Shown one piece after another: positions 41,001-44,000 of a DNA stretch of 64,000 bases (its first letter is position 1; every line of letters starts with the position of its first letter). The translations under genes were made by a program, and so were the position numbers. Origin of the DNA: an uncultured Pelagibacteraceae bacterium (GTDB lineage Bacteria > Pseudomonadota > Alphaproteobacteria > Pelagibacterales > AG-422-B15). The stretch is from NCBI GenBank assembly GCA_902577765.1, contig CACHAK010000001.1:263040-327039 (forward strand), read 5' to 3'. The notes under the pieces are model-generated. The model ran no database searches. It worked only from the letters and a program-made list of their open reading frames with translations, and had not been told where the DNA came from.

Positions 41001-44000
41001 AAATCCAGATTTAAGTCCTGATCAGCTCGATGCACTCATAGACAATTTTGCTGGAAATGCTGTTGGAGCAATTGCTCAAGGAATGGCAGTTGGTGATCCT
41101 GATATCGCTGGTGACATGGCAGGTATTATGATGGATGCTGCCATGGCCAATCCTGAGATGGCTGAAAACTTTGTAGGCGAGATTGCAGGGGGTATGGCTG
41201 CGGGCGCTCCACAACAAGCAGGTGAAATTGCTGTTGGAATGATGGAAGCTAACCCTGATATGGCTGGAGATATTGCTGGCGGGGCTGCTGCTGGTAATCC
41301 GCAAGTTGCAGCAGGAGTTGCAATGGAAATGGTTGGAGCGGATCCAAATTTAGTAAATGATATTGCTGGTGGAGTTGCTGAGATGGCACCCGCCACTGCA
41401 GGAGGTGTTGTTGGTGCAATGGTTGCTGATAACCCTGATGTTGCTGCTGGAGTAATTGACGCAGCAATGACAGCAAACCCAGCTGCTGCTGGCGCTGTTG
41501 CTGGTGGAGTTTTAGCGGCTGTTCCTGATGGTGAGGCTGCTGTTGGAATAATGCAAGATGTGGCCGCTGCAAATCCAGATGCAGCTGGAGCTTTTGCAGG
41601 AGGAATGGCTCAAGCTAACCCAGCCGCTGCTGGCGAAATAGCTGGTAGCCTTGCTGCTATTGATCCAGCACTTGCTGGAGATATGGCGGGCGCGATGGCA
41701 ACCGCTAACCCAGCCGCTGCAGGTTTGGTTGCCGCAGGTGTTGCTGAACTTGCACCTGACGCTGTGGGTGCAATTGCTGGTTCTATGGCGGATGCAAACC
41801 CTGCTATTGCAGGACAAGTCGCAGCAGGCATGGCTCAATTTGATCCTGGTGCAGCTGCACAGTTTGCCGGTGATTTAGTTGCTGCTAATCCTGATATGGC
41901 TGCAAATATTGCAAGTGGAATGGCGCAGCTGGCTACACAAGGTGGAATGGCTGATCTTGCCGGTGAATTTATGGGTCAAATGGCTGCTGCAAACCCTGAG
42001 ATGGCTGGAATGATGGCTGCTGGAATGACTCAAATGATGGGTAATCAAGGAGCTGCATTCATGGCTGACATGGGCGATGTTATGGGAGCTGATATGGCCG
42101 CTCAATTACAAGCTGATATGCAGTCACAAATGGCTGATATGCAATCAATGATGCAAAACGCTATGCAAGGTGGAGAAATGTTTATGGGCCCAATGATGAC
42201 TGCTGATATGATGGGGCCAGCAGACTTTGGTGGAATGATGGACATGGATATGGGCATGCTCCCTGGTATGGATATGGGCATGGGACCTATGATGGGTATG
42301 CCTGGTATGGGTCCAATGATGGGACCAGATCCTATGATGGGAATGATGGGACCAGATCCTATGATGATGGGCATGGACCCAATGATGATGGGTGGACCAA
42401 TGATGGGACCAGATCCGATGATGATGGGTGGAATGCCTGGAATGGGACCTATGATGGGGCCAGATCCTATGATGCAACTTGGAATGGATATGGGCATGGA
42501 TCCTATGATGATGATGAATGATCCGATGGCAGCGATGAATATGGGTATGGATATGATGATGAACGATCCAGCCATGATGCAAATGGGAATGGATTTCTTT
42601 GGCGGCCCTGAAAACATGATGAACGAAATGATGATGGGTATGAACGATATGATGATGGGTGGAATGCCAGGAATGGGACCTATGGGCATGGACCCTATGA
42701 TGGGAATGATGGGACCAGATCCTATGATGATGGGTGCAATGCCAATGACTCAAGGGATGATGACGAATATGGGCATGGACCCTATGATGATGGGAGGTCC
42801 AATGATGGGACCAGATCCTATGATGATGGGCATGGATCCACAAATGATGATGGACAATATGGTCATGATGGGCATGGACCCAATGATGGCAACTCAAATA
42901 GGTATGATGGATGACCCGATGATGGGAATGATGCAAATGGGCATGGACCCAATGATGGGTGGAATGGACCCAATGATGATGGGTGGAATGGACCCAATGA
43001 TGATGGACCCAATGATGATGGGTGGAATGCCAGGAATGGGACCTATGGGTATGGATCCTATGATGGGCGGTATGCCAATGGATGGCTATATGGACCCATA
43101 TGCAATGGGTGGAATGCAAATGACTCCAGGTATGATGGAAGGTATGGGTATGGACCCAATGATGGGTGGCATGGACCCAATGATGATGGGTATGGACCCA
43201 ATGATGGGCGGCATGGACCCAATGATGATGGGCGGTATGATGGGCATGGACCCTGGCATGATGGGCGGTATGGACCCTATGATGATGGGCGGCATGGATC
43301 CTGGTATGGGCCAAATGGGCCAAATGATGCAAATGGGCGCAGAGATGGGCATGGGCATGGAAGGTATGATGCAAATGGGTATGGAAATGGGCATGAACAT
43401 GAACCCTATGGAAGGTATGATGGGCGAAATGGGCGGCATGATGGGCATGGACCCAGGTATGGGTATGGACCCAATGATGGGTGGCATGGACCCAGGTATG
43501 GGCATGGACCCTGGCATGATGGGCATGATGGAAGGTTCAGGGCCAATGGAAGGTATGCCAATGGAAGGTATGCCAATGGAAGGTATGCCGATGGAAGGAA
43601 TGCCGATGGAAGGAATGCCGATGGAAGGAATGCCGATGGAAGGAATGCCTATGGAAGGTGAAGGAATGCCTATGGAAGGTGAAGTAGAAGGATTTATGGG
43701 CGCAATGTGGAACGGTGTTTTTTATAATCCAGGCCAACAAGCAGCTTACGAAGCAGCACAGCTAGCTGATCCAACAGGCGGCCAAAATGGTGGTATGGGT
43801 GCCGGCGGCGGCGGCGGCGGCGGCGGAGGAGGAGGAGGAGGTGAACAAATGGTTCATAACTCTACTCCAGGTCAAGATATGTTTAATGGTTCTGATGGCG
43901 TACAAGATACATTTGTATTTACTCTTGGACAAGGCCCAGGTGCAGGCACACCGTTTAATGCATTTACAATAACAGGCAATGCGGGCACGGCTGACTTTGT

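Follow-up and report, generated by a model that had tools for sequence, protein, structure and literature searches.

A methionine-rich, probably disordered domain in a giant putative type I secretion substrate of a SAR11 bacterium

A methionine-rich segment of a giant protein encoded by an uncultured Pelagibacteraceae bacterium of the SAR11 lineage is, very probably, a disordered module of a type I secretion substrate maintained by selection. The gene lies in a stretch of 64,000 nucleotides (nt; positions 263,040 to 327,039 of contig CACHAK010000001.1, assembly GCA_902577765.1), which is called the window throughout, and a first-pass annotation of this DNA had already drawn attention to the segment. 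Two features of the window are central.

35041..44217, + strand: giant open reading frame (ORF), 3058 amino acids (aa), about 294 kDa, presumed type I secretion substrate (single ORF, ribosome-binding site, composition, orthologue L005)
41947..43719 (core 42040-43680), + strand: Met/Gly/Pro/Asp low-complexity domain (composition, AlphaFold2 (AF2) model, ratio of non-synonymous to synonymous substitution rates (dN/dS))

Composition, conservation and predicted disorder of the domain

The first-pass annotation had placed a Met/Gly/Pro/Asp low-complexity domain of about 550 aa, more than 40% of it Met, at 42040-43680. This interval is in frame with the giant ORF, which is a single frame from end to end, and its translation yields 547 residues (aa 2334-2880), 224 of them Met (41.0%). 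A boundary criterion of at least eight Met per 30 aa extends the domain to aa 2303-2893 (nt 41947-43719), so that it is slightly larger than initially drawn. The core further contains 118 Gly (21.6%), 66 Pro (12.1%) and 49 Asp (9.0%), followed by Glu (3.7%), Gln (3.5%), Ala (3.3%), Asn (2.2%), Phe (0.9%), Ser (0.5%) and Tyr (0.4%), while Cys, His, Trp, Lys and Arg are each represented by zero residues. Gly and Pro together account for 34%, aliphatic and aromatic side chains are almost nil, and the net charge of the domain is -69 with no positive residue at all. Across 29 other ORFs of the window 2.36% of residues are Met, and the richest stretch of 100 aa among them holds 11. At this background rate the Chernoff bound for 224 Met among 547 residues is about 1e-207, and enrichment by chance is excluded.

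The Met residues are arranged in short repeated units, dominated by (G)MDPMM(M)G(G) and MPMEG. The units MGMDPMM and MGPDPMM, named already in the first-pass annotation, occur ten and six times, respectively, and GMDPMM 15 times; where one window of 45 residues with 20 Met had been counted, 252 such windows reach at least 20, with a maximum of 23/45. MPMEG units number eight, and the seven that are contiguous (aa 2839-2873, nt 43555-43659) close the domain and are registered by Tandem Repeats Finder as a 15-nt tandem (43542-43658, 7.8 copies, 97% matches), the copy number of which varies among the homologues P0002, P0003 and L023-L028. Spacing of Met is also even: a Met-to-Met gap of 3 was observed 63 times against about 32 expected, which makes MxxM roughly two-fold enriched, gaps of 6 or more were found 5 times against about 16 expected, and the largest Met-free gap is 8 residues. 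Altogether 71 M.M, 87 M..M, 34 M.M..M, 30 M..M..M and 5 MDM motifs were counted. The domain thus carries 0.41 sulfur atoms per residue against a background of 0.036 (11-fold), and the whole protein, with 376 Met per molecule, has 3.4 times the background sulfur per residue. The cost of an average residue is 23.2 high-energy phosphate bonds in the Met domain and 16.9 in the Ala-rich part of the protein, with amino-acid costs as reportedly given by Akashi and Gojobori 2002.

Comparison with a complete orthologue of 2958 aa in the single-cell genome AG-919-C04 (L005) showed that residues 1-2560 are for the most part 89-99% identical per block of 100 aa, with one gapped block (aa 701-791, 56 of 91 identical). 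The DNA over the same residues is about 86% identical, and this divergence at such a high conservation of the protein argues for selection at the protein level. For aa 2334-2560 of the Met domain (218 codons aligned) dN/dS was 0.012, with 60.2 synonymous and 7.8 non-synonymous changes, and 82 of 84 aligned Met positions were kept. The flanking aprA-like gene gave nearly the same value (0.013, at 99% protein identity), and the Ala-rich part of the giant gene 0.03-0.06. Based on these alignments, the Met-rich domain is not neutral and, as measured in its first half, is under strong purifying selection. This is in line with the first-pass opinion that such a sequence was unlikely to be neutral, as is the richness in Met of nearly all diverged alleles.

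The latter was estimated for 19 alleles from the database and from single-cell genomes, in which at least 15 residues are visible upstream of a conserved anchor motif, F.G.MWNG..Y. In 16 of them, the window protein included, Met constitutes 21-41% of this upstream part; low values were found in P0013 (7% over 15 residues) and in the frameshifted fragment P0019 (10%). Metagenome loci with a measurable upstream part fell into the same range of 21-41% in 10 of 12 cases. At the same time the repeat units themselves differ from allele to allele (MDPMMGG, MPMEG, MENMGPMPG, MMPGQE(Y/N), PMNPMN, MPMGPE, MMNDPMNN), and in the distant alleles L034, L030 and L039 the visible part, 30-40 residues, shows units rich in N/Q/D/P or Y/P/Q/G, or with V for M. 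Length varies as well, as the first-pass annotation had proposed to verify: about 450 aa in L005, 550 aa in the window and about 900 aa in the long-read metagenome-assembled genome L001. The domain is therefore neither absent from orthologues nor freely replaced in them, though there is wide variation in its repeat units and length, and a few distant alleles differ. Conservation concerns mainly Met-richness and position; over the first half of the domain it extends to the exact sequence. Presence of the domain at the same locus in L005 and in L001, with synonymous differences, means that it is no assembly artefact in kind, and an artefactual expansion, considered in the first-pass annotation as a source of error, is contradicted to the same extent.

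Structurally the domain is probably intrinsically disordered. In an AF2 model of aa 2700-3058, built with 22 aligned homologues, the predicted local distance difference test score (pLDDT) was 37-48 over aa 2700-2882, where secondary structure is practically missing. A sequence search of PDB with the Met domain gave zero matches even at E<=10, as the composition filter strips everything.

The giant protein and its secretion locus

Genes of a type I export apparatus surround the giant gene.

33630..34991, + strand: TolC-family outer-membrane channel gene (Pfam OEP, 1.5e-33; TIGR01844 is the best NCBIfam model, under its cutoff)
44287..45933, + strand: type I secretion ATP-binding cassette (ABC) permease/ATPase, 548 aa (Pfam ABC_membrane and ABC_tran)
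45930..47144, + strand: HlyD-family type I periplasmic adaptor (TIGR01843, 322 bits against a cutoff of 208.65)
47050..48123, + strand: lone inverse-autotransporter-type beta-barrel gene (PF11924, 2e-31; variable accessory)

The TolC-family gene ends 49 nt upstream of the giant gene, which has a GGA-rich ribosome-binding site 8 nt before its start, and TolC, giant, ABC and HlyD genes follow each other on one strand with short gaps, in a synteny common to L001, L002 and L005. On a 1.30-Mb long-read contig the TolC gene, the giant gene (broken there by frameshift errors), ABC/HlyD, adenylylsulfate (APS)-kinase-like and aprAB-like genes stand in the same order. The ABC protein, for which LssB, PrtD and HlyB are the best NCBIfam classes, has no N-terminal peptidase domain; in five uncultured Pelagibacteraceae single-cell genomes its identity is 95%, 87%, 70%, 51% and 44%. 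A scan for promoters and terminators gave the same counts as shuffled sequence and was uninformative.

The giant protein itself has the features expected of a type I substrate: the dedicated neighbours, a characteristic C-terminal region, and an acidic, Cys-poor composition (414 Asp and Glu against 2 Lys and 2 Arg, one Cys). Its N-terminus, MPVTPAEAQEFF, is not hydrophobic, as expected where an N-terminal Sec signal is absent. In the sister alleles P0026, P0029 and L007 canonical nonapeptides of the repeats-in-toxin (RTX) type (PF00353) are located between the Met domain and the shared C-terminal domain. On these grounds we conclude with high confidence that this SAR11 bacterium has a dedicated type I secretion system with the giant protein as its substrate, and the word "exported", used in the first-pass annotation, finds support in the TolC and ABC/HlyD neighbours, in the HlyD score, in the RTX-cap likeness of the C-terminal model and in the terminal DFTVA. 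With only four Lys and Arg in 3058 residues a tryptic digest of this protein would leave almost no usable peptides.

From N to C terminus the protein is built of Ala-rich repeats, the Met domain, a hairpin anchor with poly-Gly and a beta domain.

35041..41946, + strand: Ala-rich 15-aa repeat region, predicted alpha-helical solenoid "extender" (Pro spacing, autocorrelation, AF2)
43693..43842, + strand: conserved anchor FMGAMWNGVFYNPGQQAAYEAAQL (small hairpin and helix), then a 13-residue poly-Gly linker (kept across alleles)
43843..44214, + strand: C-terminal beta-rich domain, presumed secretion signal and folding cap (AF2, Foldseek)

Overall it contains 29.9% Ala, 12.3% Met and 11.1% Gly, and the G+C content of its gene is 47-55% against about 26-35% in the remainder of the window. 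The Ala-rich region (residues 1 to about 2300) comprises about 139 units of 15 aa with the consensus AEANPEAAADIAGAM; of the 138 Pro-to-Pro intervals 106 measure exactly 15 residues, and autocorrelation peaks at 15 and 30. For aa 1340-1579, modelled with seven internal segments as a pseudo-alignment, AF2 predicted 16 helices of about 14 residues (pLDDT 80, predicted template-modelling (TM) score 0.67), and Foldseek retrieved for this model generic HEAT/ARM solenoids alone, with poor TM-scores. That a type I-secreted protein should have such a predicted solenoid as its extender, assigned to no family by Pfam or NCBIfam, is by itself unusual. Neither Pfam nor NCBIfam has a family for the C-terminal domain, the N-terminal 400 aa or the whole giant protein, and a PDB sequence search with the N-terminal 700 aa returned no matches. 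A Pfam "XPC-binding" match (aa 283-310, E 5.9e-14, zero accepted stretches) and matches of ApoLp-III and FliH were rejected as low-complexity artefacts; the first of them could mislead automatic annotation of the ORF.

The C-terminal domain (aa 2935-3058, 124 aa; motifs QDTFVF...ADGDKIKI...DFTVA, protein end ...SDSDFTVA) was modelled with pLDDT of about 90 in the same AF2 run that gave low confidence to the Met part, with 64-76 for the anchor and 32 for poly-Gly, and 15 of its columns are invariant among 22 homologues. The best Foldseek match of the model is RTX block V of Bordetella CyaA with its cap (5cvw; prob 0.99, root-mean-square deviation 3.0 A over 107 columns, E 0.03, TM 0.40 on target), and another is Pseudomonas alkaline protease (AprA, 3vi1). 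The E-values are weak, in part because disorder takes up two thirds of the query model. A regular-expression search for the RTX nonapeptide GGxGxDxUx found none in the 3058 aa, and no match to Pfam HemolysinCabind (PF00353) was obtained. Sequence matches of the C-terminal 178 aa in PDB turned out to be Gly linkers of single-chain antibody (scFv) constructs and were discarded.

Set against L005, L001, L003, L004 and L007, the locus 33630-47144 is a mosaic, and one of its borders falls within the Met repeats.

42721..43067, + strand: zone of similarity collapse between the conserved 5' part and a divergent 3' secretion cassette (protein blocks, blastn ends)

Up to about aa 2580 protein identity to L005 is roughly 95% or higher (from 78/82 to 99/100 of the ungapped columns in each block of 100), and beyond this point, in the second half of the Met domain, 35-47 of about 65 ungapped columns are identical, with many gaps. 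Nucleotide alignments by blastn end at 43015 (L005) and 43067 (L001). The first 7.7 kb of the giant gene differ from L005 with a synonymous divergence (dS) of about 0.5, while its last 1.2 kb represent an old divergent allele; the C-terminal domain is 43% identical, the ABC protein 70% and HlyD 88%, dS being saturated for both transport genes, and TolC upstream 88% at the amino acid level with dS 2.7. Downstream flanks return to 92% DNA and 99-100% protein identity (dS about 0.34). In L007, likewise with flanks 92% identical, the ABC protein shares just 44% and the C-terminal region has true RTX repeats. Judging by these alignments, the Met repeats are thus the place where a conserved 5' "passenger" meets old and divergent signal and transporter alleles, which fits matching of signal and transporter together with repeat-mediated recombination. 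This property of the repeats, to serve as a cassette junction, is better supported than the adhesive mechanism discussed below.

The beta-barrel gene has no passenger domain and is followed by a 314-aa ORF (48126-49070) without a family. The barrel is present in the window and in L005, where the blastn alignment runs through it to window position 48394, and both it and the 314-aa ORF are missing at the syntenic loci L001, L003, L004 and L007. Perhaps the barrel serves the secreted protein as an accessory partner in the outer membrane. At 49100-52634, just past the secretion operon on its downstream side, the window encodes an APS-kinase-like P-loop protein and aprA/aprB-like (adenylylsulfate reductase) proteins, and at 2934..4292 on the minus strand a pyridoxal-phosphate enzyme of Cys/Met metabolism (Cys_Met_Meta_PP, metY-like). 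A SAM-type leader ascribed to metY in the first-pass annotation was not recovered: no Rfam riboswitch reached the gathering score in the window and none appeared at E<=1 in 4200-5500. Vicinity of sulfur genes to a sulfur-rich protein is probably coincidental; the arrangement is plain synteny, conserved in four genomes at 92% nucleotide identity. Genes for an alternative oxidase, a photolyase-related protein of the DPRP family and glutathione peroxidase are clustered at 10885-11553, 12177-13655 and 13671-14216, which fits a sunlit, oxidising habitat.

Candidate mechanisms

The reading to which we give preference, tentatively and as a possible rather than a probable one, is that the Met domain acts through its composition as a flexible tether, cohesive or adhesive, located presumably at the distal end of a secreted fibre. 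On type I secretion the C-terminal domain would leave the cell first and fold outside, and the Met segment coming after it would find itself at the far end of the helical rod, which by a rough estimate would be about 70 nm long. It is known that the ligand-binding region of RTX adhesins is C-proximal, forming a distal tip just upstream of the C-terminal beta-roll, with the repeat array as extender (bioRxiv 10.1101/2025.09.30.679566). By its position the Met domain may take the place of this region, provided that the N-terminus stays at the cell. It would then act via composition rather than fold: close and evenly spaced Met side chains (at most 8 apart) would be flexible, polarisable hydrophobic "stickers", Gly and Pro would hold the chain unfolded, and Asp and Glu, which determine its net charge, would keep it soluble and able to bind Ca2+ and Mg2+ of seawater. 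The outcome would be a long floppy tether with weak multivalent stickiness, suited to fibre-fibre cohesion or to adhesion to hydrophobic or soft ligands, and this stickiness may be tuned by thioether chemistry, that is by oxidation to sulfoxide or by coordination of Cu(I)/Ag(I). A precedent is provided by the Met-rich low-complexity domain of Pbp1/ataxin-2, which self-associates and is dissolved by oxidation (PMC8394241). A specific need for Met is supported by the high residue cost and the sulfur content of the domain.

Several points weigh against the tether. Export, retention at the cell surface and binding of any kind are inferences. The analogy with a distal tip assumes a cell-bound N-terminus, and the protein may simply be released; a retention module, in particular, gave no Pfam or NCBIfam match either in the N-terminal 400 aa or in the whole protein. 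SAR11 bacteria are regarded as free-living plankton, which leaves an adhesin without an obvious target. Low AF2 confidence coming from a shallow alignment is weak evidence for disorder. In its first half the domain has kept the exact sequence, which goes beyond what a purely compositional model requires, and Met is dispensable at least in the sub-segment beside the C-terminal domain, because L030, L034 and L039 use other units there.

Unlikely, and yet first among the alternatives to the tether, is an array for binding of Cu(I)/Ag(I), an extracellular thioether "Mets" antenna or sponge similar to the ectodomain of Ctr1 or to the inserts of CueO and CopA/PcoA, which would buffer or harvest copper at the surface or, in another variant, let Cu(I) cross-link the domain into a gel. 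Clustered MxM, MxxM and MxMxxM motifs of the Mets type are indeed present in a predicted-disordered segment in the numbers given above, with MxxM about two-fold enriched, and Asp stands beside Met as in the Cu5 site of CueO, composed of 2 Asp and 2 Met (PMC11840665). Numerous weak Met sites can sum statistically (PMC11840665), and peptides with the MDM motif of reflectins bind Cu(I) and then gel (bioRxiv 10.1101/2025.08.12.669908). However, there is neither His nor Cys in the domain, and Met-only sites are weak, linear peptides having log K of 5-6 and pre-organised tripods log beta of about 8 (PMC11840665). Dissolved copper in the surface ocean is about 0.2-1.5 nM, more than 99% of it organically complexed (PMC7004168), and from these figures we estimate an occupancy of about 1e-3 per site or lower. 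Besides, copper-handling families (cop, cus, cue) had no match among window ORFs of at least 150 aa, three of which lack any Pfam match, and some alleles swap Met units for N/Q- or Y-rich ones.

Quite unlikely, as it seems to us, is a role in secretion itself. Here the domain would serve as a leader that neither folds nor sticks; it would come after the C-terminal signal in the ABC-HlyD-TolC duct and leave the substrate secretion-competent, perhaps collapsing outside with Ca2+/Mg2+ as a ratchet that replaces or supplements RTX repeats, and its repetitive DNA would be the recombination joint for cassette swapping. The location is suitable, directly before the C-terminal signal domain, a place occupied in RTX proteins by Gly/Asp-rich repeats, and so is the composition, with 22% Gly and 9% Asp in a chain predicted to be disordered; lack of the RTX nonapeptide in the window allele fits as well. 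Ca2+-dependent folding outside the cell is an accepted ratchet (bioRxiv 10.1101/2025.09.30.679566), and the breakpoints 43015/43067 against two independent genomes fall inside the domain, with old alleles downstream. Yet the choice of Met, costly and sulfur-consuming, is left unexplained, as Gly, Ser, Asp or Asn would serve; the RTX-bearing alleles P0026, P0029 and L007 keep the Met domain; a length of 450-900 aa far exceeds the span of the envelope; and no beta-roll is seen in the AF2 model.

Improbable, in our estimation, is a function in oxidant chemistry, where Met would be a sacrificial shield or a redox switch converted to sulfoxide by singlet oxygen, HOBr/HOCl or peroxides, with the result that oxidant is consumed near the cell or the material state of the coat is altered. 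The 224 thioethers would be exposed in a predicted-disordered chain, Met oxidation dissolves Met-rich condensates of Pbp1 and TDP-43 (PMC8394241, PMC10576115), and genes of glutathione peroxidase, alternative oxidase and a DPRP-family protein are in the window. Against this, a sparse coat tens of nm off the cell would, by a rough estimate, intercept a small share of short-lived oxidants. Extracellular sulfoxide is beyond the reach of cytoplasmic methionine sulfoxide reductase (Msr), so that sulfur would be spent irreversibly, and no msr gene is present in the 64-kb window. The reaction of Met with H2O2 is very slow, and SAR11 reportedly (Tripp et al. 2008) depends on external reduced sulfur, which makes such spending less plausible.

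Still lower, to the point of being very improbable, we place a reserve of reduced sulfur or Met, or a translational "sulfur checkpoint" by which completion and export of the protein take place only with plentiful Met-tRNA. The Met and sulfur content of the molecule and of the domain, the position of the secretion signal downstream of 224 Met codons, without which it is not made, and the Cys/Met-metabolism, aprAB-like and APS-kinase-like genes of the window could be cited in its favour. But a protein that leaves the cell is ill suited for storage, dedicated genes for a protease or for uptake are lacking next to it, the aprAB neighbourhood, as ordinary synteny, is not linked to the variable cassette, and conservation of the exact sequence at dN/dS of 0.012 is left unexplained.

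Finally, a non-functional origin by neutral slippage expansion or mis-assembly, or a real gene on the opposite strand, for which one could refer to the repetitive DNA with its perfect short tandems, to the breaking of contigs in or near the repeats (18/18 in metagenomes, 4/5 in single-cell genomes) and to long minus-strand ORFs, has next to no chance and is effectively refuted by plus-frame dN/dS of 0.012 with 60 synonymous changes, by conservation of the 9.2-kb ORF end to end in L005 and by agreement of three independent assemblies, one of them long-read. The minus-strand shadow ORFs within 42102-43740, one His-rich of 409 aa (42145..43374) and two Ile/Pro-rich of 195 and 146 aa, were rejected as genes; they arise because CAT is the reverse complement of ATG, trivially so in the His-rich one.

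Related proteins and significance for SAR11

A profile search with the C-terminal domain among 1.84 billion representatives gave 47 clusters at E<=1e-3, all of them fragments; longer matches (P0050, P0059, P0062, P0064, P0069) were unrelated tandem repeats. A word-based homologue search with the Met domain retrieved members of the giant-protein family and compositional look-alikes alone, among the latter eukaryotic BRK-domain proteins with "MDPKML" repeats (P0024, P0025, P0027); P0028 was set aside as a chimeric contig. The N-terminal 330 aa, a query swamped by Ala-rich candidates, gave a single match, P0030, a metagenome protein of 531 aa whose first ~215 aa are about 95% identical to the giant N-terminus and are continued by unrelated Gly/Ala/Asp/Ser-rich sequence. 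P0030 is either an alternative passenger on the giant N-terminus or a chimeric short contig. A metagenome scan revealed 18 loci, and every contig begins inside or just past the Met repeats, so no further full-length genes came from this source. A full-text search of the literature on Pelagibacter/SAR11 returned no paper on the giant protein, and assembly breaks in the repeats together with invisibility to tryptic digestion may explain its absence there. We are aware of no natural domain of such length at 41% Met, a database-wide census not being part of the basis for this statement.

Giant type I RTX adhesins (LapA, MpIBP, FrhA, SiiE) resemble the protein in several respects: they are giant, repetitive and acidic, stand beside ABC/HlyD/TolC genes, consist of an extender, a special region and a C-terminal signal with a capped-RTX-like C-terminal region, and short-read assemblies break in their repeats. 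In contrast to them, the extender here is a 15-aa Ala-rich repeat, predicted to be alpha-helical, and not a series of immunoglobulin (Ig)-like beta-sandwiches, no retention module was detected, the window allele is without GGxGxDxUx nonapeptides, and a segment with 41% Met, predicted to be disordered, stands where folded ligand-binding domains sit. From the set of minimum features defining such adhesins, namely a retention module, extenders of Ig-like type and a signal-bearing beta-roll at the C-terminus (bioRxiv 10.1101/2025.09.30.679566), the giant protein lacks Ig-like extenders, a retention module was not detected among Pfam and NCBIfam families, and in place of the third the predicted fold is similar to an RTX block with cap (prob 0.99, E 0.03, TM 0.40), without recognisable nonapeptides.

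Other relatives in composition are more distant. Mets regions of copper proteins (Ctr1, CueO, CopA/PcoA, CopI) share MxM/MxxM clusters near Asp in flexible, exposed, non-cytoplasmic segments; they are 10-60 residues long, usually with His, and belong to a transporter or oxidase in copper-regulated operons, whereas the Met domain has 450-900 residues without His or Cys in a presumably secreted fibre with no copper genes nearby. Domains of Pbp1/ataxin-2, TDP-43 and Pab1 are likewise disordered and of low complexity and self-associate via Met in an oxidation-switchable manner, but they are found in cytosolic eukaryotic RNA-binding proteins, are Q/N/S/Y-rich and prion-like, and are reset by Msr; their Met content is also far lower, that of TDP-43 having ten Met in 150 residues (PMC10576115). 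The Met domain is bacterial, apparently extracellular and 41% Met, and instead of a prion-like Q/N/S/Y-rich composition it is G/P/D-rich and strongly acidic. Abductin of the bivalve hinge ligament, to which the first-pass annotation had compared the domain, is also a marine protein located outside the cell and made of Gly/Met-rich random-coil repeats. The parallel proved to be poor, since abductin is built of the unit GGFGGMGGGX, is low in Pro and is cross-linked (PMC13052691), while in the domain Pro makes up 12%, Asp 9% and Phe 0.9%, Met is much more frequent, and Cys/Tyr/Lys chemistry for cross-links is missing. Cephalopod reflectins have Met/Asp repeats (MD/MDM), are largely disordered and self-assemble; they are, however, intracellular, cationic and Tyr/Arg-rich with motifs of 25 aa, as opposed to 5 MDM, no Arg, almost no Tyr and a charge of -69 in the Met domain. 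Delta-zeins, the classic most Met-rich natural proteins with about 22-27% Met (PMC10546030), are small plant storage proteins, folded or aggregating; the Met fraction of our domain is much higher, its stretch longer, and it would belong to a secreted bacterial protein. From its gene context and model, the giant protein looks like a type I-secreted repeat protein in which an alpha-solenoid extender is combined with a Met-rich disordered module that has no precedent.

SAR11 is the most abundant bacterial lineage in the surface ocean. Extreme streamlining marks its genomes, and for reduced sulfur the cells reportedly depend on supply from outside. A 9.2-kb gene, 376 Met per exported molecule and selection as strong as on a core enzyme are unexpected in such an organism, and a costly and strongly selected exported protein implies an important extracellular function. 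It may even be, though we consider this improbable, that SAR11 exports a hitherto undescribed protein material, an alpha-solenoid rod ending in the most Met-rich natural domain known to us, whose thioether "brush" forms a redox- and/or Cu(I)-responsive coat or a released polymer. If this is true, the brush would be, at SAR11 population sizes, a meaningful and unrecognised source of dissolved organic sulfur and of weak copper ligands, and also a hypervariable surface structure shaped by pressure of phages or grazers, as the swapping of cassettes suggests. A domain of 450-900 aa with about 40% Met and without a characterised counterpart offers a natural test case for extracellular thioether-rich disordered chains, be it in adhesion or cohesion, in soft-metal chemistry or in sensing of oxidants, and the cassette structure of its gene is relevant to the diversification of surface structures in SAR11 populations in nature.

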